A stretch of DNA of 64,000 bases from an uncultured Alphaproteobacteria bacterium (GTDB taxonomy: Bacteria > Pseudomonadota > Alphaproteobacteria > Bin65), in NCBI GenBank assembly GCA_963730305.1, contig CAVSRB010000004.1, positions 1-64,000 on the forward strand, given 5' to 3'. Every line of letters begins with the position of its first letter. The first letter of the stretch is position 1. Under the pieces are notes generated by a model. It was not told the origin of the DNA and did no database searches. It saw only the letters and a list, made by a program, of their open reading frames with translations. Of this stretch, positions 21,353-48,197 are shown one piece after another. Made by a program: the position numbers and the translations under genes.

Positions 21353-21441
21353 GCCCCTGTGGCGGAATTGGTAGACGCGGCAGACTCAAAATCTGTTGTC
21401 CGGCAACGGACGTGGGAGTTCGAGTCTCCCCGGGGGCACCA
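21353..21441 (+). tRNA. tRNA-Leu (anticodon CAA), 89 nt incl. CCA
   Basis: 7-bp acceptor stem GCCCCUG/CGGGGGC, anticodon loop CUCAAAA, long variable arm, T-loop GGGAGUUCGAGUCUCCC, encoded CCA. Confidence 0.9.
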
Positions 21442-22268: not shown

Positions 22269-23081
22269 TTGACCGACGCCAAAGCCACCGCCTCGGACGG
22301 CTGCCGCCTGGTCTATTCCCTGCTGGCCGACGCCGGGCCGGAGGCGCCGCGGCTGGCGCTGGTCCACTCGCTGGCGATGGACCGCCATTTCTGGGCGGGG
22401 GTCGCCGACGCGCTCGGCGGCGCGGCCTCGGTGCTGGCGCTCGACTGCCGCGGTCACGGCGAGTCGGGCAAGCCGGTCGGTCCCTATTCGGCGGACCTGT
22501 TCGCCGACGACCTCGCCGCCGTGCTCGACGCCGCGGACTGGGACGACGCCGTCGTCGCCGGCGCGTCGATGGGCGGCTGCGTCGCGCTCGCTTTCGCCGC
22601 CAACCATGCCGGCCGCACCCGCGGCCTCGGCCTGATCGACACCACCGCCTGGTACGGCGACGGTGCGCCCGACGCCTGGGCGGGACGGGCATTGAAGGCG
22701 CAGTCGGGCGGCATGGCCGCGCTGATCGACTTCCAGGTCAGCCGCTGGTTCAGCGACGGCTTCCGCGAGGCGCGCCGCGACGTGGTCGAGGCGGCGATCT
22801 CGACCTTCCTGCGCAACGACGTCGAGGCCTATGCCGCGACCTGCCACATGCTCGGCGCCTGCGACCTGCGCGCGGCCCTGCCCGGCATCGGCGCGCCGAC
22901 CCGGGTGGTCGTCGGCGAAGAGGACTATGCGACCCCGGTGGCGATGGCGACGGCGTTGCGCGACGGCATTCCGGGCGCGACGATGACCGTGCTCGACGGC
23001 GTCCGCCACTTCACCCCGCTCGAATGCCCCGAGCGGATCGCCGCCGAGCTCGAGACCCTGATCGAGGCAAGCCAGGCATGA
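22269..23081 (+). CDS. Alpha/beta hydrolase (3-oxoadipate enol-lactonase-like), 270 aa
   Basis: GASMGG nucleophile elbow, a/b-hydrolase fold; stop overlaps next start (ATGA). Confidence 0.8.
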   Translation: MTDAKATASDGCRLVYSLLADAGPEAPRLALVHSLAMDRHFWAGVADALGGAASVLALDCRGHGESGKPVGPYSADLFADDLAAVLDAADWDDAVVAGASMGGCVALAFAANHAGRTRGLGLIDTTAWYGDGAPDAWAGRALKAQSGGMAALIDFQVSRWFSDGFREARRDVVEAAISTFLRNDVEAYAATCHMLGACDLRAALPGIGAPTRVVVGEEDYATPVAMATALRDGIPGATMTVLDGVRHFTPLECPERIAAELETLIEASQA

Positions 23082-23953
23082 CCCCTTTCGAATTGATGGA
23101 GCCGACCTCCCTAAAGGAGGCGCTGGCGCTGCTCGACCCCGACGACCCCGACGTGCGGCCGTGCGGCGGCGGCACCGCGCTGATGCTGATGATGAAGGCG
23201 GGCGCGCTGAAACCGACCCGGCTGGTCAGCCTGAGGCGGGTCGACGGCGGCCTGCACGATATCGAGGCCGGTGCGGACGGTAGCCTACGCATGGGCGCAC
23301 TGACCCCGCTGGCGGCGGTCGAGCGGTCCGCCGCCGTCCGCGACCACGCGCCGGTGATCGCCCGCACCCTGCGGACCCTGTCCAACATCCGCGTGCGCAA
23401 CGTCGCCACCCTGGGCGGCCACCTCGCCCACGGCGACCCGCACATGGACCTGCCGCCGGTGATGATCGCCCTCGACGCGACGGTGACGCTGACCGGGCCG
23501 AGCGGATCGCGCGAGCTGCCGGCGGCCGACCTGTACACCGGCTTCTTCGAGACCGCGCTGGCCGGCGACGAGCTGATCACCGGCGTGAGCGTGCCGGCCC
23601 AGCCGAGGACCGCCGGCTACGTCAAGTGCACCACCCGCTCGGCCGACGACTGGCCGGCGCTGGGGGTTGCCGTGGCGCTCGACATGGACGGCGACACCGT
23701 GCGCGGCGCCCGGGTCGCGGTCAGCGCGGCGACCGAGCAGCCGGCGCGGCTGACCGAAGCCGAAGCGGCGCTGACCGGCGCGGCGATCGACGACGCCAGC
23801 CTGAAGCGGGCGGGCGACGCGGCGGCGGACGAAGCCGCCATCGTCGGCGACGCCCAGGGCTCGGCCGACTACAAGAAGCAGCTGCTGCGCGTGTCGCTCG
23901 GCCGCGCGGTCAGACAGGCGCTCGCCGCCGGACAGGAAGGAGCGGGCCGATGA
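23078..23953 (+). CDS. FAD-binding molybdopterin dehydrogenase medium subunit (CoxM/XdhB-like), 291 aa
   Basis: FAD-binding PCMH domain (VRPCGGGTALMLMMK...), CO-dehydrogenase flavoprotein C-domain; ATGA coupling on both sides. Confidence 0.85.
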   Translation: MTPFELMEPTSLKEALALLDPDDPDVRPCGGGTALMLMMKAGALKPTRLVSLRRVDGGLHDIEAGADGSLRMGALTPLAAVERSAAVRDHAPVIARTLRTLSNIRVRNVATLGGHLAHGDPHMDLPPVMIALDATVTLTGPSGSRELPAADLYTGFFETALAGDELITGVSVPAQPRTAGYVKCTTRSADDWPALGVAVALDMDGDTVRGARVAVSAATEQPARLTEAEAALTGAAIDDASLKRAGDAAADEAAIVGDAQGSADYKKQLLRVSLGRAVRQALAAGQEGAGR

Positions 23954-26220
23954 GCACGACCGCCAAGACCCGACAGGTCGGCCGCTCGCTGCCCCGGCTG
24001 GAAGCGCGCGAGAAGGTCACCGGCCGCGCCGAGTACATCCACAACCTGCGCCTGCCGGGCATGCTGCACGCCAAGATCTTCCGCAGCGACATCCCCCACG
24101 GACGGATCGTCAAGATCGACACCAGCGCCGCCGCGGCGGTCGAGGGTGTGTTCGCCGTCTACACCGGTGAGGACGTCAAGCGGGTGATCCCCGACCCCTA
24201 TTTCGGCCCCGCCTTCCACGACCAGCCGATCCTGGCGCTCGACAAGGTTCGCTACGTCGGCGAGGCGGTCGCGGTGGTGCTGGCCAGCGACCCGCACGTC
24301 GCCCAGGCGGCCGCCGACCTGATCGAGGCCGAGTACGAGGAGCTGCCGGCGGTGTTCGACGAGGTCGAGGCGATGAACTCGCAAGCCATCGTCCACGAGG
24401 AGCTCAAGCCCGCCGGCACCTTCCCGGACCTCAAGCACCTCCAAGGCAAGCGCGACACCAACGTCGCACTCGACTTCCACCTGCGCAGGGGCGACACCGA
24501 CAAGGCCTTTGCCGAGGCCGACCACGTGTTCGAGCACACCTTCAACACCCAGCGGGTGCTGCACCTGGCGATGGAGCCGCTGGTCTCGCTCGCCGAGACC
24601 ACCAGCGACCACACGGTGACGATCCACACCGCGTCGCAGAGTCCGTCCTTCGTCCGCATCGAGATCGCCCGGCTGCTCGGCTGGGCCGAGAACCAGGTGC
24701 GGGTGCGGACCGCCTATCTCGGCGGCGGCTACGGCGCCAAGCTCTACATCAAGCTGGAGGCGCTGGCGGTGGCGCTGGCCCTGCTCGCGCGCAAGCCGGT
24801 GCGGGTCGCGCTCGGGATGGACGAGGTCTTCCTACCATCAACAAGCACCCGACCACCTTCAAGATCCGCAGCGCGGTCACCAAGGACGGCAAGGTCACCG
24901 GCCGCGCCTGCGAGGTCTGGTGGAACGGCGGCGCCTATGCCGACATCGGCCCGCGGGTGACCCAGAAGTCGGGCTTCACCGCGGCGGGGCCCTACGACAT
25001 CGACAACGTCACCATCAATTCCTACGCGGCCTACACCAACCTGCCGCCGGCCGGCGCGCTGCGCGGCTTCGGCATCCCGCAGCTGGTCTGGGCCTACGAG
25101 AGCCACACCGACCTGATCGCCCGCGAGATGGGCATCGACCCGGTCGCGTTCCGGCGGAAGAACATCCTGCGCGACGGACGGCCCCAGGCGACCGGGACGG
25201 AGATGAAGGACGCCGCCTTCGACGCGGTGCTCGACCGCATCGCCGCAGCGGATGGACTGGGACAAGCCGTTCGACAAGGGCGCCGGCACGAAGCTGCGCG
25301 GCCGCGGGGTCGGCCTCGGCTTCAAGGCCTGCATCGCGCCGACCACCTCGGTCGCGATCGTCAACATGGGCGCCGACGGCAGCTGCACGCTCTATTGCGG
25401 CACCGTCGACATGGGCCAGGGCTGCGGCACGGCGATGGCCCAGATGGTCGCCGAGGTGCTCGACCTGGAGGCCGAGGACGTGCGGGTGGTCCAGCCCGAC
25501 ACCGACATCACCCCCTACGACATGGGCACGCTCGGCTCGCGCTCGCTGTTCCACATGGGTCACGCGGTCCGGCTCGCCGCCGAGGACGTCAAGGCCAAGC
25601 TGGCGGCGCTGGCCGACGAGCTCGGCCTGCCGCCCGGCTCCAACATCCCGATCCCGGAGATGTTCGTGAAGCGCTACGGCATGCGGGCCGGCAACATCAT
25701 CGGCACCGGCACCTTCGTGCCCAGCTACACCTCGCCGGACGCCGACGGGCTGACGCCGGACGCCACGCCCTTCTGGATGGTCGGCGGCGCCGGGGTCGAG
25801 ATCGAGGTCGACACCGAGACCGGCCACATCAAGATCGAGCGGCTGGTCAACGTCTGCGACGTCGGCACCCCGATCAACCCGGCCATCGTCGAGACCCAGA
25901 TCTCCGGCGGCGCGGTGATGCAGCTCGGCTTCACCATGTTCGAGGAGATGGCCTTCGACGAGGGCCAGCTCACCAACGGCACGCTCGCCGACTACCGCAT
26001 CCCCGGCTTCCACGACCTGCCGGCGACGATGGAGAACGAGGCGGTCGACGCGGTCCAGAGCTCGGGACCGTTCGGCGCCAAGGGCGTCGGCGAATCGGCG
26101 ACCTTCGGCGTCTCGCCGGCCATCGCCAACGCGATCCACGACGCCGTCGGGGTCCGGCTGACGCGCCTGCCGCTGACGCCCGAGGCCGTGTTCACGGCCC
26201 TACAGAATAAGGAGGGCTGA
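23950..26220 (+). pseudogene. Molybdopterin-binding large subunit (CoxL/XdhA-like, ~757 aa) split over three frames by two single-base frameshifts (~24835 and ~25250)
   Basis: Three consecutive ORFs (23950.., 24957.., 25252..26220) together give a colinear full-length large subunit: ...RVALGMDEVFL|TINKHPTTFKIRSAVTKDGKVTG... and ...DRIAAA|DWDKPFDKGAGTKLRGRGVGLG... Confidence 0.8.
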
Positions 26221-26224
26221 CGAT

Positions 26225-26713
26225 ATGGGGCCGCAATTCAAATCGATCCGCTTCACCCTCAACGGCGCGCCGGCGACCGCGACGGTCGCCACCCACCACA
26301 CCGTCGTCGAGATGCTGCAGGAGCAGTTCGGCCTGTTCGGCGCGCGCGAGAGCTGCGCCCAGGGCCTGTGCGGCTGCTGCACGGTCGAGGTCGACGGCAC
26401 CGCGATGACGGGCTGTCTGACCTTGGCCGCCTTCCTCGACGGCGCCGACGTGGTGACCATCGAGGGGCTCGACGCCGGCGGCGACCTCGACCCGGTCCAG
26501 GAGGCCTTCATCGAGACCGGCGCCTTCCAGTGCGGCTTCTGCACCTCGGGCATGATCCTGATGGCGCGCCAGCTGCTCGACGCCGATCCGGACCCGGACG
26601 ACGACACGATCCGCCACTACCTCTCCGGCAATCTCTGCCGCTGCGCCGCCTATCCCGAGATCATGAAGGCGGTGAAGCTGGCGGCGAAGAAACGGGCCGG
26701 CGCCGCGGCCTGA
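26225..26713 (+). CDS. (2Fe-2S)-binding small subunit (CoxS-like), 162 aa
   Basis: Plant-ferredoxin-like CAQGLCGCC and second cluster motif QCGFCTSG ... CRCAAY. Confidence 0.9.
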   Translation: MGPQFKSIRFTLNGAPATATVATHHTVVEMLQEQFGLFGARESCAQGLCGCCTVEVDGTAMTGCLTLAAFLDGADVVTIEGLDAGGDLDPVQEAFIETGAFQCGFCTSGMILMARQLLDADPDPDDDTIRHYLSGNLCRCAAYPEIMKAVKLAAKKRAGAAA

Positions 26714-30274: not shown

Positions 30275-31873
30275 CTAGGCCCCGACCGGCCGCCAGGCCG
30301 GGTCGCCCGCCGCCCGCGCCTGGGTCGCGGCGTCGCGCAGCAGGCGGCGCAGGATGTTGCCGTTGCCCGGATTGCGCGGGATCTCCGTGGCGACGAAGTA
30401 GCCCTTGGGCCGCTTGAAGCCGGCGAGCGGCGAGGCCTTGAAATGGGCGTCGAGCACGGCCGGATCGACCGCGCGCTCGCCCTCCGCCGGAACGACGCAG
30501 CCGACCACGATCTGGCCCCAGTGATCGTCGGCCAGGCCGATCACGGCGCAGTCGGCCACGCCGGGCGCGGTGCGCAGCACGTCCTCGATCTCGCCGGGGT
30601 GGATGTTCTCGCCGCCCGACTTGATCATGTCGTCGGCCCGGCCGCACAGGGTGAAGTAGCCGCGCTCGTCCACGGTGATGACGTCGCCGGTGTAGTACCA
30701 GCCGTCGCGGATCTTCTCGGCGGTGGCGTCGGGCCGGTTGAGGTACTCGGTGAACATGGTGTCCGAGTCGGCAGCGATGATCAGCTCGCCCTCGTCGCCC
30801 GGGCCGATCAGGTCGTCCGGCCCGCCGCCCAGCCGGATGAAGCGCGTGCGGGTGTAATAGCCGGGCCGCAGCGCGTGCGGATCGCCGACCGGGTCGGGGT
30901 TGTAGCCCGAGCACATCGTCTCGGTGGTGCCGTAGATGTGGCGGATGGTGGCGTTCTCCCACTGGGTCGCCATGTGGTCGATCAGGTCCTCGGGGATGAT
31001 CGAGCCGCCATAGAGGACGAGCTCGAGCGAGCGCATCTTCTCCGGCGCGTAGGTGGGCGCGTTGACCATGGCGTAGTAGAGGGTCGGCGCGGCGAAGGTG
31101 TAGGTGATCGCGTTCCGCTCGATCGCGTCGACCGCCGCCGCCGGGTCGAAGCTCGACATCATGTAATAGGTGCCGCCGAAGCCAAGCGTGACCAGGAACA
31201 CGCCGTAGAAGCCGATGCAGTGGGCCAGCGGCATGAAGCCGAACGCGCGGGTATGCGGGCCGTGACGCAGGCCGCCCTGGGTCGCCAGCCAGACGATGCG
31301 GTGCTCCGACGAGCGGTGGGGCAGCACGGCGGCCTTGGGCAGCCCGGTCGTGCCCGAGGTGTAGAAGATCATGCACGGGTCTTCCGGGTCGGGCCGCGGC
31401 ACCGGCGGCAGGGTCGCCGGGTCGCCGACGCACTCGGAAAAGTCCGCCCCCGGCAGGGACGCCTCGCCGGGCGGCCCGAGCGCGACGGTGAACAGCGCGT
31501 CCGTGTTGGGCAGCGCGCCGGCGACGGCCTCGGCGACCTCGGGCTGGGCCATCACCACCGCGCCCTTCATGCCGGCCAGCTCGACCAGCTTGGCGACCTC
31601 GGCCGGCTTGAGCCGGGCGTTGATCAGCGCCGGGATCGCGCCGATGCGCTGCAGCGCGAGGATCGCCAGGGCATGCTCCCACACGCTCGGCAGGCAGGTC
31701 GCCACCCGGTCGCCCGCGCCGATCCCGCGCGCCGCGAAGCCGGCGGCGACCCGGTCCATTTCGGCGATCAGTTCGCGGTAGGTCAGGCGCCGGTCGGTGC
31801 GGTCGTCGACCAGCGCCGGATGGTCCGGCGTCCGCTCGGCCTGGTTCCAGACGAGGTCGTACATGGTCTGCAT
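30275..31873 (-). CDS. AMP-dependent synthetase/ligase (acyl-/aryl-CoA ligase class I adenylate-forming enzyme), 532 aa
   Basis: AMP-binding motif YTSGTTGLPKAA, GYGTTE-like IYGTTET, C-terminal ...KSGGENIHPGEIE. Confidence 0.9.
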   Translation of the reverse strand: MQTMYDLVWNQAERTPDHPALVDDRTDRRLTYRELIAEMDRVAAGFAARGIGAGDRVATCLPSVWEHALAILALQRIGAIPALINARLKPAEVAKLVELAGMKGAVVMAQPEVAEAVAGALPNTDALFTVALGPPGEASLPGADFSECVGDPATLPPVPRPDPEDPCMIFYTSGTTGLPKAAVLPHRSSEHRIVWLATQGGLRHGPHTRAFGFMPLAHCIGFYGVFLVTLGFGGTYYMMSSFDPAAAVDAIERNAITYTFAAPTLYYAMVNAPTYAPEKMRSLELVLYGGSIIPEDLIDHMATQWENATIRHIYGTTETMCSGYNPDPVGDPHALRPGYYTRTRFIRLGGGPDDLIGPGDEGELIIAADSDTMFTEYLNRPDATAEKIRDGWYYTGDVITVDERGYFTLCGRADDMIKSGGENIHPGEIEDVLRTAPGVADCAVIGLADDHWGQIVVGCVVPAEGERAVDPAVLDAHFKASPLAGFKRPKGYFVATEIPRNPGNGNILRRLLRDAATQARAAGDPAWRPVGA

Positions 31874-32416
31874 GGTCAGGCGCCTCCCCCCAGCGTGCGC
31901 GATGCTGGCTATCCTAACGGCGCGACAACGGTCGGCGCTATCCCGTTACCGGCAACCGCGCAGCCCGCCGGTGGCATGGCGTTTTCGCGGGCGCCCGATT
32001 CCTTGAGCGTCATGCCCGCGCAGGCGGGCATCCAGGCCGGTGGCGAAACTGGACCCCCGCCTGCGCGAGGGTGACGGGACAAGGAGTGCTGCCAAGCCGG
32101 CAGCGTCGGAAAACGCGCGAAGGTTATCATCGGTTATCTTTGGTTATCTTCTGGCAGTGGTCCCCGGCTCTCCGCCGCGCTTCGGCCAGGGTGGCGGAGA
32201 TTTTGAATGATCCAAAAAAGACTATTCCGCCCCGGCCGTCGAGCCGGGGCCTACCGAGGCCGGCAACCGCATATGGGAATTAATTCAGAAGCTGCAAGAA
32301 AGATCATCGGCTATCAGCACCCGGCCGCGCGCCCCGTCCGGCGCGAGAGCGGCTGGTCGTCGGCACACGGGGCTCGGGGCGCGCGGGGCTCGGCGCGCGG
32401 GGCGCGCCGTTTCCGG

Positions 32417-33781
32417 TCACCACCCGGGCCGGTCCCGCCACCACCAATCCGGCTTGAACCGCTTGCCGTAGCCCAACGCATTGTCCAGCCACAGCGCGAC
32501 CCGGCGCAGCGGACCGCCGGCCAGCTTCTTCCAGGCTCTGAAGTAGACCCGCCCCAGCCAGGTCTCCGGCAGCTTGTTGTAGGGGCACACCCGGATGCAG
32601 ATGCCGCACTCGGTGCCCTGGTTGGCCCAGAAGCCGAAGCATTTCTCGCCGTCGACGTTCCACTTCCGGATGCCGACGAAGTTCGAATCGTTGTGGAAGG
32701 CGCCGTCGGGCGCACCGTGGGGGATCGCCTTGGGCGGGCAGGCGTCGGCGCACTTGCGGCAGAGGTCGCAGAATTCCTTGACGCCGAATTTCTTCGGCTC
32801 GTCGTGGGCGAGCGGCAGGTCGGTGAAGATCTTGCCGAAGCGCAGGCGCGGCCCGTACTCGGGCGTGATGACCAGGCCGTGGCGGCCGTATTCGCCCAGC
32901 CCCGCCTGGATCGCGTAGGGCACGCACTGGGCGGTGTCGTTGAGCGAGGCGACCGCGCGGTAGCCCAGGTTGCGGATGAACTGGGCGATCGACATGAGAC
33001 AGAGGCCATCCTTCGAGTAGCCGAAGCCGGCGGCCACCCCGCCCAGCGCCGAGGGCATGGTCTGGATCACCTTGCCGGGCATCTCGGTGCCGATGACGAT
33101 GCAGTGGGGCAGGTCTTCGCAGTCGGCGTTGTCCTTCTCGGTCATCGTCTTGGCGTTGAACCGCCTGGTGTAGTGCCAGCGCAGGTCCGTGGACGTGATG
33201 CCGATCAGGTCGGCGCCGAAGATCTTGGCCGCCTGCTTGAGCTGGGCCGCCATCTCGGCCGGGTCGTCGACCGGCTCCTTCTCCGGCGCGGGCGGGGCGT
33301 AGGCGGTGAGGTCGTCGAGGAAGCCCTCGTGCCGCTCCTCGTGCAGGCTGCGCTCGATCAGCAGGTTGGCGCCGACCCAGGCGGCGTTGCGGATGGCGAA
33401 GTCGCGCCGGCGGTAACCCTCGGTGTTGCGCACGCCGATGCCGTGCATGAACATCGACTTGAACCAGGCGATCGCCTTGTCCGAGCGCACCCGTTCGTCC
33501 CACTGGGCGCGGGCGAAGGTGTCGTTGCACGCGTTGAAGCGCCGGAAGCCGTCCTCGATCTCGAAGCCGCAGGCCGCGTCGTAGGGCTGGTGCTTGGGCC
33601 CGTGATAGACCTCCTCCGGGGTCGGCGGGTTGTCGACCGAGAGCGGCGTCGGCCGGTTCGGCCGCGTTGTCGCCTGCGCGGCCGCCGGCGCGCCCTTCGG
33701 CGGCCTGGTCTTGCCCGGCCGCGTTGGCGGCGTGCCGACTGCCTGCCGGCCGGATGCTTGTTTGCCGGTACCCTGTGCCAT
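32417..33781 (-). CDS. Reductive-dehalogenase-like (RdhA family) corrinoid/iron-sulfur protein, cytoplasmic type, 454 aa
   Basis: C-terminal CDLCRKCADACP (Cx2Cx2Cx3CP) followed by CFGFWANQGTECGICIRVCP (Cx10Cx2Cx3CP), the RdhA arrangement rather than QueG; no twin-arginine signal; AGGAA RBS. Confidence 0.55.
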   Translation of the reverse strand: MAQGTGKQASGRQAVGTPPTRPGKTRPPKGAPAAAQATTRPNRPTPLSVDNPPTPEEVYHGPKHQPYDAACGFEIEDGFRRFNACNDTFARAQWDERVRSDKAIAWFKSMFMHGIGVRNTEGYRRRDFAIRNAAWVGANLLIERSLHEERHEGFLDDLTAYAPPAPEKEPVDDPAEMAAQLKQAAKIFGADLIGITSTDLRWHYTRRFNAKTMTEKDNADCEDLPHCIVIGTEMPGKVIQTMPSALGGVAAGFGYSKDGLCLMSIAQFIRNLGYRAVASLNDTAQCVPYAIQAGLGEYGRHGLVITPEYGPRLRFGKIFTDLPLAHDEPKKFGVKEFCDLCRKCADACPPKAIPHGAPDGAFHNDSNFVGIRKWNVDGEKCFGFWANQGTECGICIRVCPYNKLPETWLGRVYFRAWKKLAGGPLRRVALWLDNALGYGKRFKPDWWWRDRPGW

Positions 33782-33806
33782 GGCGTTCCTCCCCGAACGC
33801 GGGCCG

Positions 33807-34640
33807 CTACAGGAAGGCGCGGATCTCCCGGATCAGACCGGCCTCGTCCTCGCCGGCGACGTTGTGGCCGGTGTCGAGCTCGACCAGCGTGAGGTTGGCG
33901 TTCTCCGCCTTCATGCGCACGGCGTTCTCTTCGGAGAACATGTCCGACTTCCGGCCGCGGACGACCAGCACCGGGCAGGATATCGAGGCCAGCGTCTCCC
34001 ACAGGTCGACCGGCTGCTTGGGCGCCTCGCCGGTCTCCAGCACCTTCTTGAAGCGGTCGCGGAAGACCGTGTCGCGCTTGATCGCGAAGCCGCCGTCGAC
34101 CGGCCTGAGATAGGCCTCCATCCGGGCGCGCACCGCCGGGTTCGCCTTGTCGTGGCCGTAATAGTCGAGCGCCGCGTCGACCGAGGCGAAGGCGTCCGGC
34201 ACGCCCGCGACCGATCTGGTCACCCGGTCCGAGCCGGCCTTGGCGTTCTTGGGACTCCAGTCGACCAGGATCAGCTTCTCGACCTTGTCGCCGTGGCCGC
34301 TGGTGTAGAAGGTCGTGTTTCGCCCGCCCATCGAGTGGCCGATCAGGATCGCCCGGTCCCAGCCGAAATGGTCGAGCAGCGTGTCGATGTCCCCGGCGAA
34401 GGCCTTGAGCGAATAGTCCTTGTCCGGGCTCCAGGTCGAATCGCCGAAGCCGCGCATGTCCTGCGCCACCACCTCGCGGTCGGTCGCCAGCGCCGACGCC
34501 ACCCCGGCCCAGTCGTAGGAGAAGTAGGACAGGCCGTGGACGATCAGGATCGGCGTCGCCCCCGGCCGGCCGAACTTCCGGTAGTGCAGGGTGACGTCGC
34601 CCGACGGGCAGGTTCCGGTCTCGTGCGCAGGCAGGGTCAT
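33807..34640 (-). CDS. Alpha/beta hydrolase, 277 aa; start MTLPAHETG
   Basis: HGLSYFS oxyanion region, GHSMGG nucleophile elbow; 25 nt upstream of rdhA-like gene; 60-codon N-terminal extension rejected. Confidence 0.8.
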   Translation of the reverse strand: MTLPAHETGTCPSGDVTLHYRKFGRPGATPILIVHGLSYFSYDWAGVASALATDREVVAQDMRGFGDSTWSPDKDYSLKAFAGDIDTLLDHFGWDRAILIGHSMGGRNTTFYTSGHGDKVEKLILVDWSPKNAKAGSDRVTRSVAGVPDAFASVDAALDYYGHDKANPAVRARMEAYLRPVDGGFAIKRDTVFRDRFKKVLETGEAPKQPVDLWETLASISCPVLVVRGRKSDMFSEENAVRMKAENANLTLVELDTGHNVAGEDEAGLIREIRAFL

Positions 34641-45148: not shown

Positions 45149-46876
45149 ATGCCCGACGACAGCCGCGCGCGCACCAACCGGCCCAAATACCGCTCGCGCA
45201 TCACCACCGACGGCATGGACCGGGTCGCGCACCGGGCCTTCATGCGCGCCATGGGGCTCGACGACGAGGCGATCGCCCGGCCGATGATCGGCGTGGTCAC
45301 CACCGACGGCGAGACCACGCCCTGCAACATGGGCCTGTCGGACCAGGCCGCCCACGCCTACCGCGGCATCGCCGAGGCCGGCGGCACGCCGCGGGAATTC
45401 ACGACGGTGTCCGTGTCCGACGGCATCTCGATGCAGCACCAGGGCATGAAGTTCTCGCTGGTGACCCGCGAGATCATCGCCGACAGCGTCGAGGCGGTCG
45501 TCCGCGGCCACGTCTACGACGCGCTGATCGGCTTCGCCGGCTGCGACAAGACCCTGCCCGGCCTGATGATGGCGATGGTGCGGCTGAACGTGCCCGCGGT
45601 CTTCGTCTACGGCGGCGCGATGCTGCCGGGCAATCGGGACGGCAAGGACGTCACGGTGCTGACCGCCTACGAGGGCATCGGCAGCGTCATGGCCGGCACG
45701 ATGGACCAGGACGAGGTCGACGCCCTGGAGCTGGTCTGCGCGCCGACCATCGGCGCCTGCCCGGGCCAGTTCACCGCCAACACGATGGGCATGGTCTCCG
45801 AGGCGCTGGGCCTGGCCCCGCTCGGCTCGTCGATGATCCCGGCGGTCTATTCGGAGCGCGTCGGGGTCGCGCGCAAGGCCGGCCAGACCCTGATGGCGGC
45901 GCTGGAGAATGGCGGGCCGCTGCCGCGCGACCTGGTCACGCCGGTGAGCCTCGCCAACGCCGCCGCCGTGGTCGCGGCGACCGGCGGATCGACCAACGCG
46001 GCGATGCACCTGCCCGCGATCGCGCACGAGGCCGGCATCGACTTCGACATGGCCGCGGTCGCCGAGGTCTTCGACCGCACCCCGCTGGTCGCCGACCTGC
46101 AGCCGGGCGGCCGCTTCCTGGCCCGGGACGTCCACGCCATCGGCGGCGCGCCGGTGATCTTCAAGCTGCTGATGGAGCTCGGCTGCTTCGACGGCGCGGC
46201 GCTGACCGTCACCGGCGAGACCATGGCCGACGCGCTGAAGGCCTTCCCCGATCCCGACGGCGAGGTGGTGCGCAAGAAGGACAACGTGATCTCGCCCGAC
46301 GGCGGCGTGGTCGTGTTGAAGGGCAACCTGTGCCCCGACGGCGCGCTGCTCAAGGTCGCCGGCCTCAAGTCGCTCACCTTCAAGGGCCCGGCCCGGGTGT
46401 TCGACAACGAGGAGGACTGCAACAGGGTCGTCCAGGCCCAGGACTACCAGGCCGGCGAGGTCATCGTCATCCGCTACGAGGGCCCGCAGGGCGGCCCGGG
46501 CATGCGCGAGATGCTGGGCACGACGGCGCTGATCTACGGCCAGGGCATGGGCGAGCAGGTCGCGCTGCTGACCGACGGCCGCTTCTCGGGCGCGACCCGC
46601 GGCATGATGATCGGCTACGCCAGCCCCGAGGCCGCCACCGGCGGCCCGCTCGCGCTGATCGAGAACGGCGACGTCATCGAGATCGACGCCAAGGCGCGCA
46701 AGATCTCGGTCGAGCTGTCGGACGAAGAGCTGGCGGCGCCGGCGCGCGGCCTGGAAGGCGCCCGACCCGCGCCACCTCGGCGGCGCGCTGGAGAAGTATG
46801 CCCGGCTGGTCGGCCCGGCGAACAAGGGCGCGGTGACGCATTCGGGCAATGTGGAGTGGGAGGTGGAGGAGCACTA
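45149..46876 (+). pseudogene. IlvD/EDD-family dehydratase (sugar-acid/dihydroxy-acid dehydratase), ~575 aa, -1 frameshift at ~46745 truncating the conserved C-terminus
   Basis: [11 protein letters not shown]-terminus, Fe-S ligands (CDK...CPG...), AGGAGG RBS; conserved tail [41 protein letters not shown] is readable in another frame ending TAG at 46874-46876. Confidence 0.8.
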
Positions 46877-46947
46877 GGCTCCCGCTTCCCGACGGGCATA
46901 GCGACGGTTGCCGCCCGCCACCAGCCGGCGAGACTCTTGAGGAAGAC

Positions 46948-47640
46948 ATGACGAGTGCCGAAGGCGCCCTGGTGCTGTTCTCCGGGGGCCAGGATTCGAC
47001 GACCTGCCTCGCCTGGGCGCTCGACCGGTTCGAGCGAGTGGAGACCGTGGGCTTCGCCTATGGCCAGCGCCACCTGGTCGAGATGGACTGCCGGCCGCCG
47101 CTGCTGGAACGCCTCGCCGCGCTGCGGCCCGACTGGCGCGCGCGGCTCGGGCCGGACGAGGTGATCGACCTGTCGGCCCTGGGCGCGGTGTCGGAGACGG
47201 CGCTGACCCGCGAGGTCGCGATCGAGATGGGCGCGGAGGGGCTGCCCAACACGTTCGTGCCGGGGCGCAACCTGGTCTTCCTGACCTTCGCCGCGGCGCT
47301 CGCCTACCGGCGCGGGCTGCGCCACCTCGTCGCCGGCATGTGCGAAACCGACTATTCCGGCTATCCGGATTGCCGCGACGACACGATCAAGGCGCTGCAG
47401 GTCGCGCTCAACCTCGGCATGGAGCGGCGCTTCGTCGTCCACACCCCGCTGATGTGGATCGACAAGGCCGAGACGTGGCGGCTGGCCGCGGCGCTGGGCG
47501 GCGACCGGCTGGTCCGGCTGATCGTCGAGGATACCCATAGCTGCTATCTCGGCGACCGCGGCACGCGGCACGACTGGGGCTTCGGCTGCGGCGACTGCCC
47601 CGCCTGCGCGCTTCGCGCCGAGGGCTACCGACGCTTCATA
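46948..47640 (+). CDS. queC: 7-cyano-7-deazaguanine synthase QueC (~231 aa); C-terminal end uncertain (annotated to out-of-frame TAG at 47638-47640, i.e. assumes a terminal frameshift; called ORF has no stop until 47844)
   Basis: PP-loop [18 protein letters not shown], Zn-binding [10 protein letters not shown]; frame stays open through shadow of the convergent cupin gene, suggesting terminal frameshift or lost stop. Confidence 0.75.
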
Positions 47641-48197
47641 GCGGATCCGGCAGCGCCCGGCGGCCAGCTCACGCCCCCCCTCCGCGCCCCGTCGACCAGG
47701 ATGAAGGCGATCCGGCACACCTGCGTCCCGCGGTTCGACCAGGCGTGGTTGGTGCCGCGCTGGACGACCGTGTCGCCGGCCTTCAGGAGATACTCCTCCT
47801 CGTCGAGCAGCAGCCAGATCTCGCCGTCGAGGATCACCGCGTAGTCGACCGTCTCGGTCCGGTGCATCATCGGGTGGCGGGCGTTTTCGACGATGGCGTC
47901 GGCGGCGCCCATGTGCTCGAAGGCGGCGCGGCCGTCGACGGCGTCGAGCTGCGCCGGGTCCTCGGGCGCGAACTCGACGATGCGGAAGACGGTGCCGTTC
48001 GCGGGCGGCTGGAGCGGCATCGGGCCGTCGACCGTTTCTTCGGGCCCGTCGATCGGGGCGGGGGTCGCATGCGTCCGCCACAGGTTGGTGACCGCGGCGT
48101 CGGGGCCTTCGTTGACCCGTGCAGTGCCGTCGGACACGCAGACCGCCTTGCCGTTCGCGTCGTGCCCGGTGACCAGGCGGCGGACGGGCTTCGCCAT
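47625..48197 (-). CDS. Cupin domain protein, 190 aa (copy 1 of tandem pair)
   Basis: [19 protein letters not shown]... cupin barrel; ~75% identical to 48432..48965. Confidence 0.75.

Follow-up and report, generated by a model that had tools for sequence, protein, structure and literature searches.

What does a reductive-dehalogenase-like protein do in the cytoplasm of an uncultured alphaproteobacterium, and which of its genomic neighbors works with it? The question is raised by a 64,000-nucleotide stretch of contig CAVSRB010000004.1 (approximately 69% G+C; referred to as the window), in which an rdhA-like gene on the reverse strand (32417..33781) starts with ATG and encodes a 454-amino-acid protein of the cytoplasmic class-III B12 reductive dehalogenase (RdhA) family. 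Coordinates of window features written with two dots are on the reverse strand, and residues are numbered on the 454-amino-acid open reading frame (ORF). A preliminary description of this locus had proposed a rare catabolic dehalogenase of the NpRdhA/BhbA type, forming an aromatic/halo-organic catabolic module together with an alpha/beta hydrolase and a coenzyme A (CoA) ligase. The observation behind it is real and the family is right, but neither the subtype nor the rarity is correct, and it is the ligase, not the hydrolase, that is the meaningful partner of the RdhA. The window RdhA probably helps to break down naturally halogenated aromatic acids. For the specific reading that it removes a halogen from an aromatic acid, benzoic or phenolic, in the cytoplasm, coupled to CoA-dependent catabolism, we see about an even chance; this substrate class is suggested by the conserved pairing of the RdhA with an ANL-family ligase, which in the window is a homologue of 4-chlorobenzoate:CoA ligase (CBL).

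The window protein is a bona fide RdhA-family member. It scored 186.7 bits against the reductive dehalogenase profile TIGR02486 (cut-off 160.35) and 59.2 bits against the QueG profile TIGR00276 (cut-off 200), and both scores favor RdhA. The PF13486 model was matched at 31.1 bits (cut-off 24.3) over its C-terminal part only. Among PDB sequences, the best matches were the PceA entries 8Q4H (E 6.5e-52) and 4UQU (E 4.5e-51), followed by NpRdhA (4RAS, E 1.3e-25) and, far behind, QueG (E 1.7e-9). An AlphaFold2 model built from a 31-sequence alignment had a pLDDT of 76.9 and a pTM of 0.80, with low confidence in the loops at residues 243-247 and 283-299. In Foldseek searches this model superposed from end to end on PceA (E 3.5e-22, TMq 0.57-0.65) and matched the core of NpRdhA (E about 1e-16 to 3e-16, TMq 0.58), whereas the match to QueG was poor (TMq 0.29). 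The predicted structure has the core fold of the RdhAs together with its corrinoid-binding part, so that neither a best match to the QueG profile nor a missing core speaks against the family assignment made in the preliminary description.

The iron-sulfur motifs agree with this assignment. The first [4Fe-4S] motif, CDLCRKCADACP (residues 338-349; 32735..32770), is matched by PF13484 and PF12838, and the second, C381-x10-CGICIRVCP, covers residues 381-400 (32582..32641), with CGICIRVCP at 392-400. The overall pattern is thus CX2CX2CX3CP followed by CX10-12CX2CX3CP, a full motif and then a truncated one with a distant first cysteine, as had been described, and it is this truncation that sets the protein apart from QueG. 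In an alignment of 254 family members, all eight motif cysteines were kept in at least 253, which means that the arrangement is not a chance match. QueG was rejected as an identity on the profile scores, the poor structural match and the truncated second motif taken together.

The window RdhA is cytoplasmic, lacking a signal peptide for twin-arginine translocation (Tat), a transmembrane helix and an RdhB gene. Within its first 70 residues there is no RRxFLK-type or other twin-arginine motif and no hydrophobic stretch, no transmembrane helix is predicted in the protein (the highest 19-residue Kyte-Doolittle mean is 0.98), and between 29800 and 35300 neither strand holds a small ORF with two or more transmembrane-like segments that could be an rdhB candidate. 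On these grounds a respiratory RdhA was rejected as well, and the absence of a Tat signal and of an RdhB anchor claimed earlier holds. The N-terminus, previously noted as Ala/Pro-rich, is also basic: an extension of about 45 residues (33647..33781) is rich in Ala, Pro, Lys and Arg and predicted to be disordered (pLDDT <50 for residues 1-39), and it is not a Tat signal. This extension is common only to two close relatives (P0001 and P0013), and most homologues begin near residue 40.

The likeness is greatest to PceA, the tetrachloroethene reductive dehalogenase of respiration, known here from Sulfurospirillum multivorans (4UQU) and Desulfitobacterium (8Q4H), which is the best match in both sequence and fold and has identical cysteine spacing. 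HMMER alignment to 4uqu and 4ras places Tyr255 (33017..33019) at PceA Tyr246 and NpRdhA Tyr426, Arg314 (32840..32842) at PceA Arg305 and NpRdhA Lys488, and Trp385 (32627..32629) at PceA Trp376, where NpRdhA has Arg552; Asn281 corresponds to PceA Asn272. All four PceA residues thus have kept equivalents in the window RdhA. Tyr was found in 253/254 aligned members at the first position, Arg in 253/254 at the second and Trp in 254/254 at the third, and each of these residues, Asn281 and the eight cysteines is kept in at least 252 of the 254. The active-site set is therefore PceA-like and not NpRdhA-like, with Arg314 and Trp385 replacing the Lys488/Arg552 pair that binds the substrate hydroxyl in NpRdhA. 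The window RdhA differs from PceA in lacking the Tat signal and RdhB anchor and in not being membrane-associated, in an N-terminal half that is only weakly similar in sequence, and in a genomic context that is catabolic rather than respiratory.

With NpRdhA from Nitratireductor pacificus (4RAS) and with BhbA, the window protein shares a cytoplasmic location, the missing Tat signal, the common core fold and the catalytic Tyr. The NpRdhA alignment spans only residues 345-616 of 704, and the N-terminal vestigial cobalamin-binding domain has no counterpart in the 454-amino-acid protein; likewise, no NAD(P)H-ferredoxin-reductase Pfam domain, as in BhbA, was found in it. The motif starts are 54 residues apart in both the window RdhA and PceA, whereas alignment gaps imply 49 in NpRdhA, and BhbA of Comamonas sp. 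7D-2 is only 30% identical (E 5e-22). The best plasmid matches in PLSDB were respiratory-type proteins from Trichlorobacter lovleyi (37% identity) and Sulfurospirillum (34.5%); the PLSDB plasmids held distant RdhAs only and no members of the short Tat-less family described below. The subtype proposed in the preliminary description thus fails on the missing domains, the much closer match to PceA and the Trp in place of Arg552. A link to T7RdhA and A6RdhA (PMC10008544) by cysteine spacing was dropped, as PceA has the identical spacing and the feature is not diagnostic.

Sequence comparison places the window RdhA in a family of short Tat-less RdhAs that is large, strongly conserved and distinct from the respiratory RdhAs and from NpRdhA/BhbA. 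Its homologues are full-length proteins of approximately 390-450 amino acids with 40-92% identity (median 52%). RdhAs are normally very divergent, so this range across phyla is unusually tight; mean column identity was 60% among 31 members from multiple phyla, with the N-terminal half included. One database search returned 2164 clusters at E <=1e-5 and another 3775 at E <=1e-20, and 460 loci were confirmed in species-representative genomes. The window protein itself had no exact entry in the assembly index. With thousands of metagenomic members and 460 genome loci, the family is not rare, contrary to what had been supposed. The best 80 of the 460 loci all come from metagenome-assembled genomes (MAGs), assigned to Alphaproteobacteria and Rhodospirillaceae (some of them Tara or sponge-associated bins), Burkholderiales, Gammaproteobacteria, Chitinophagales and other Bacteroidota, Acidobacteriota, Chloroflexota, Marinimicrobia and Gemmatimonadota, and several of these MAGs carry two to three family copies.

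One characterized enzyme is probably a member of this family, as judged from its published features only. Ros_A3X954 of Roseobacter sp. MED193 has been purified and is a 395-amino-acid protein with no Tat signal (PMC13101508, 2026). It matches PF13486 at residues 174-269 only, carries CDICTKCADACP at position 283 and CAICMRVCP at 337, debrominates 2,6-dibromophenol with a kcat of 1.1 s-1 and is sensitive to oxygen; it is 72% identical to Pararhodobacter aggregans A0A2T7UTL8, which is reported to deiodinate 2,4,6-triiodophenol (PMC13101508). The PF13486 stretch (230-324) and the motifs (338 and 392) of the window RdhA lie at a constant offset of +55/56 from those of Ros_A3X954. In both proteins the PF13486 match is about 95 residues long and stops 14 residues short of the first motif, and the motif spacing is 54 residues. 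Family members of 395 amino acids, such as L079, have their motifs at 283 and 337, as published for Ros_A3X954, and the two published motif strings both occur unchanged in two members from marine Rhodospirillales (P0191 and P0193). These two are only 41-44% identical to the window RdhA over the full length, and no ligase partner has been reported for Ros_A3X954 or A0A2T7UTL8. A 73-amino-acid query centered on the motifs recovered three fragments only, and a query with a full-length paralogue matched no named Roseobacter protein. A "simplified cytosolic type" of RdhA-like protein from cold seeps, approximately 395 amino acids long and without the vestigial domain (PMC12219181), fits the architecture of the window family by description only; those proteins are accompanied by regulators and beta-oxidation genes, and they were described from Desulfobacterota and Chloroflexota. 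The window RdhA is a cytosolic RdhA of an already known short Tat-less type. Only a few reductive dehalogenases of the cytoplasm have been characterized; such enzymes are candidate catalysts both in bioremediation and in the natural cycling of organohalogens.

In order to define the genomic context of the family, ORFs within 6 kb of rdhA were clustered across the best 80 loci. An ANL ligase was found within this distance in 64 of the 80, and in 44 it was directly adjacent and co-oriented (39 downstream and 5 upstream of rdhA); no other gene family was widely shared around rdhA. Among relatives 66-84% identical to the window RdhA, the usual order is rdhA (420 amino acids), the ligase, a 307-amino-acid protein with a remote likeness to QueG/RdhA and a 656-amino-acid DhbE-like ligase. 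The first ligase has approximately 523 amino acids and shares 66-74% identity with that of the window; in close relatives it is the next gene downstream of rdhA, and the window retains only rdhA and this first ligase of the four-gene order. In subfamilies whose RdhA is 53-60% identical, the adjacent ligase is non-orthologous (25-30% identity), and its type varies, being CBL-like in the window subfamily and generic ANL or DhbE-like elsewhere. For example, the ligase of L055 is a generic ANL protein whose best PDB matches are malonyl- and feruloyl-CoA synthetases, and the L092 ligase has its closest matches in feruloyl-CoA synthetase and 4-coumarate-CoA ligases. Since non-orthologous ligases recur beside a conserved RdhA, the linkage is argued to be functional and not simply inherited, and the different ligases would argue for coupling to a carboxylic acid or thioester. 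An aromatic-acid-type CoA ligase as the only recurrent neighbor of the family is a concrete and testable hint on substrate class. Literature searches found no description of the RdhA-ligase link, which is not proof of its absence. We regard the family-wide linkage, together with the ligase lineage without a catalytic Lys described next, as modestly novel.

The window ligase (30275..31873; 532 amino acids) belongs to the ANL family and is a homologue of CBL. Its best PDB match, 3cw8/1t5d (CBL, also known as FcbA), covered the full length at E 4e-122 and 411 bits, with the next-best entry at 222 bits, and the two proteins are 43.8% identical over 498 positions. The P-loop, A5, A7 and A8 motifs are present. 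The A10 motif, PRNPGNGNILRR (30344..30379), is non-canonical: CBL has LPKNALNKVLRR around its invariant catalytic Lys492, whereas the window ligase has Asn506 at this position and a one-residue insertion. The window ligase and all of its RdhA-linked orthologues that share the orientation of rdhA and whose C-terminus could be read have the string IPRNPGNGN(I/L/V/M/F)LRR. The Asn variant, PRNPGNGNxLRR, was seen in the window and at L010-L024 and L095-L098, and all other ANL ligases examined keep the A10 Lys. A reciprocal metagenome scan gave four loci with a ligase at least 69% identical, all with the Asn variant; three have rdhA upstream, and the fourth lies on a contig without upstream sequence. 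CBL-like homologues that are 50-60% identical lie away from rdhA, with the exception of that in L104, and keep the Lys where the motif is readable. The ligases of L053 and L104, both 58% identical, are on the opposite strand to an rdhA and also keep it. This conserved loss of a catalytic Lys in the RdhA-linked lineage is an unexplained biochemical oddity.

Eight positions that we take to form the aryl pocket of CBL read F184W, H207, F249, A280G, I303, G305, M310 and N311C in the window ligase (5/8 identical), and these presumed pocket positions are fixed in 17 ligase orthologues except for an Ala at 311 in one. The pairing also differs from that of CBL, which works with a crotonase-type 4-chlorobenzoyl-CoA dehalogenase and not with an RdhA. 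Of the earlier claim that an aryl-type CoA ligase lies just downstream of rdhA, the ligase type and its downstream position stand and the immediate adjacency does not: the two genes are separated by 543 nucleotides in the window and by about 20-30 in most relatives. This gap contains a GC-rich hairpin (31990..32090; minimum free energy -62.5 kcal/mol, z -6.0), which has no U-run and no Rfam family, and three direct GATAACC repeats with 10-nucleotide spacing (32122..32148; 0.02 expected by chance), a candidate operator upstream of the ligase. Both elements are kept in L009, the closest relative locus, a contig of the uncultured alphaproteobacterial MAG Biocath_Alpha_02 (CAMYMQ01) with which approximately 31.5-42.7 kb of the window is syntenic at 75-88% nucleotide identity. 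No cobalamin riboswitch or other known RNA was found near rdhA in Rfam searches, which gave only sub-threshold noise in the intergenic region; the only window-wide match was a tRNA at 21353-21438.

The alpha/beta hydrolase (33807..34640; 277 amino acids) does lie where it had been reported, on the same strand and ending at 33807, 25 nucleotides upstream of the rdhA ATG. It carries a GHSMGG nucleophile motif and matches PF00561 (E 2e-27), no NCBIfam model exceeded its cut-off, and no specific PDB relative was found, with E. coli YbfF among the weak PDB matches. Across the 80 loci the hydrolase recurs only in L009 (92% identical), apart from one weak opposite-strand match in L039, and it is a recent, lineage-specific addition. 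An aromatic/halo-organic module would therefore pair the RdhA with the ligase, which is the conserved neighbor, and not with the hydrolase as a meaningful partner.

In the mechanism that we propose, electrons from a low-potential donor, for example ferredoxin or flavodoxin, would travel through the two [4Fe-4S] clusters to the corrinoid, which would reductively remove the halogen from an aromatic acid or phenolic, with Tyr255 and Arg314 presumably supplying the proton to the product. The free acid would be dehalogenated first, and the product would then enter CoA-dependent catabolism by way of the ligase. The catabolic RdhAs characterized so far take halophenols and halo-hydroxybenzoates in their free form (PMC13101508; PMC12219181), and the usual gene order puts rdhA ahead of the ligase; for these two reasons we rate dehalogenation of the free acid somewhat above that of a CoA ester. 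Several observations weigh against the proposed role. A ligase is missing from the neighborhood of rdhA in about 16 of the 80 loci, most of them non-proteobacterial. Co-transcription of rdhA and the ligase in the window is doubtful because the gap between them holds a strong hairpin and a putative operator. The partner ligase, lacking the A10 catalytic Lys, may not be a normal CoA ligase, and this replacement lowers our confidence that it is a conventional one. NpRdhA requires ferredoxin plus a reductase (PMC6922536), and no B12, reductase or ferredoxin gene was present among approximately 40 window genes scanned (about 7.5-53.5 kb). The link to Ros_A3X954 is indirect, and the activity of the window RdhA is a prediction from sequence. 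Finally, identities of 40-92% across phyla could mean that the family acts on a single conserved substrate, possibly a non-halogenated one.

The order of the two steps could also be reversed. The ligase would then activate a halobenzoate, the RdhA would dehalogenate the haloaryl-CoA, and the hydrolase would act as a thioesterase that frees the acid, a reductive and B12-dependent analogue of the 4-chlorobenzoate ligase/dehalogenase/thioesterase route. The three gene functions mirror that pathway, and YbfF, one of the weak matches of the hydrolase, also has acyl-CoA thioesterase activity. The kept residues of the presumed pocket suggest that a para-substituted benzoate is still recognized, the association with a ligase recurs from subfamily to subfamily, and some loci include acyl-CoA dehydrogenases. 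A pocket resembling that of CBL and the trio of hydrolase, dehalogenase and ligase keep this order under consideration, but we consider it unlikely, since conservation of the hydrolase ends with L009, the adenylation Lys is missing from the ligase, rdhA usually comes before the ligase, and characterized catabolic RdhAs act on free phenols or acids. Furthermore, the only CoA-level reductive dehalogenation found in the searched papers is that of the ATP-dependent benzoyl-CoA reductase, which is not an RdhA (PMC6922536). A related and tentative idea, of slightly lower standing, is that the RdhA and the Lys-less CBL-like ligase form an undescribed two-enzyme unit in which B12-dependent dehalogenation takes place on a haloaryl-CoA or haloaryl-adenylate. 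If true, such a unit would be a widespread route for natural halogenated aromatic acids in uncultured marine and soil bacteria.

Other explanations concern the RdhA itself. The family might be a class-III B12 reductase whose reaction on an aromatic or acyl compound is a reduction other than dehalogenation, for instance of an epoxide or a different leaving group. Its unusually high conservation in at least seven phyla and its wide spread among aerobic and marine uncultured bacteria suggest one common natural substrate, many JGI annotations read epoxyqueuosine reductase, and QueG is an example of this fold serving a reaction without halogens. The invariant PceA-type Tyr/Arg/Asn set and Trp376 equivalent make this improbable, as do the TIGR02486 score above its cut-off and the QueG score far below its own, the WelO5-family (halogenase-type) gene that adjoins one homologue, and the debromination of 2,6-dibromophenol by a probable family member (PMC13101508). 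We think it very improbable that the protein is a catabolic dehalogenase of the NpRdhA/BhbA type: its cytoplasmic, Tat-less nature and the matches to NpRdhA in sequence (E 1e-25) and fold (E 1e-16) would fit, whereas its length of 454 against 704 amino acids, an alignment that begins only at NpRdhA residue 345, the lack of a reductase domain, the Trp at Arg552, the motif spacing and the fact that BhbA is less similar than respiratory PceA-type proteins (30% against 35-37%) would not. The chance that it is QueG or a respiratory RdhA is close to nil given the scores, the structural match, the truncated motif and the missing Tat signal, RdhB and transmembrane helix. Distant homology speaks for QueG, as might a queC gene for queuosine biosynthesis 13 kb away (46837-47841, forward strand); this gene is unrelated to rdhA, and its presence means that the organism makes queuosine precursors. 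Dehalogenation of a free aromatic acid with subsequent CoA-dependent catabolism thus remains our preferred reading.

Around the rdhA-ligase pair, the loci of relatives contain various lineage-specific neighbors, including TetR regulators, acyl-CoA dehydrogenases, thiamine diphosphate-dependent enzymes and a 1176-amino-acid flavoprotein. The last of these contains Pyr_redox_2 and Cys-rich segments and lies upstream of rdhA-ligase in seven Burkholderiales loci (L052, L058, L060, L063, L065, L068 and L069), where it is possibly an electron donor. In L092, from a marine Rhodospirillales MAG, three arylsulfotransferases, a UbiD decarboxylase and a TRAP transporter stand beside rdhA; the rdhA subfamily of this locus carries the second-motif string of Ros_A3X954 and a near-identical first motif, in what looks like a phenolic-acid context. 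Many relatives' loci also encode one or two proteins of 300-355 amino acids with variant iron-sulfur motifs, which belong remotely to the QueG/RdhA superfamily (for example L001 10916-11839, L002 9265-10269 and L049 8520-10576). None of the curated models is reached by their scores, and the window has no such protein. A 58%-identical homologue in a Chitinophagales MAG (L003/L033) is located in what looks like a biosynthetic cluster, together with several PhyH dioxygenases, the WelO5-family gene, KASIII, an AMP-ligase, two radical SAM genes and a 77-amino-acid ORF that is a possible acyl carrier protein, a hint that a single pathway may include both halogenation and dehalogenation.

Elsewhere in the window, on the forward strand, a molybdenum-containing large subunit of the xanthine dehydrogenase family appears to be split over two frames (23626-24957 and 25207-26217), which may reflect a frameshift, a pseudogene or an assembly error, and is followed by a 2Fe-2S subunit (26225-26710). 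The score of these genes (23.6-26.7 kb) against 4-hydroxybenzoyl-CoA reductase, which is among their best NCBIfam matches, was far below the cut-off and no better than against xanthine or aldehyde dehydrogenases. A second alpha/beta hydrolase (22269-23078, forward strand) resembles the 3-oxoadipate enol-lactonase PcaD (200 bits, cut-off 256), and may be a hint of aromatic catabolism nearby.

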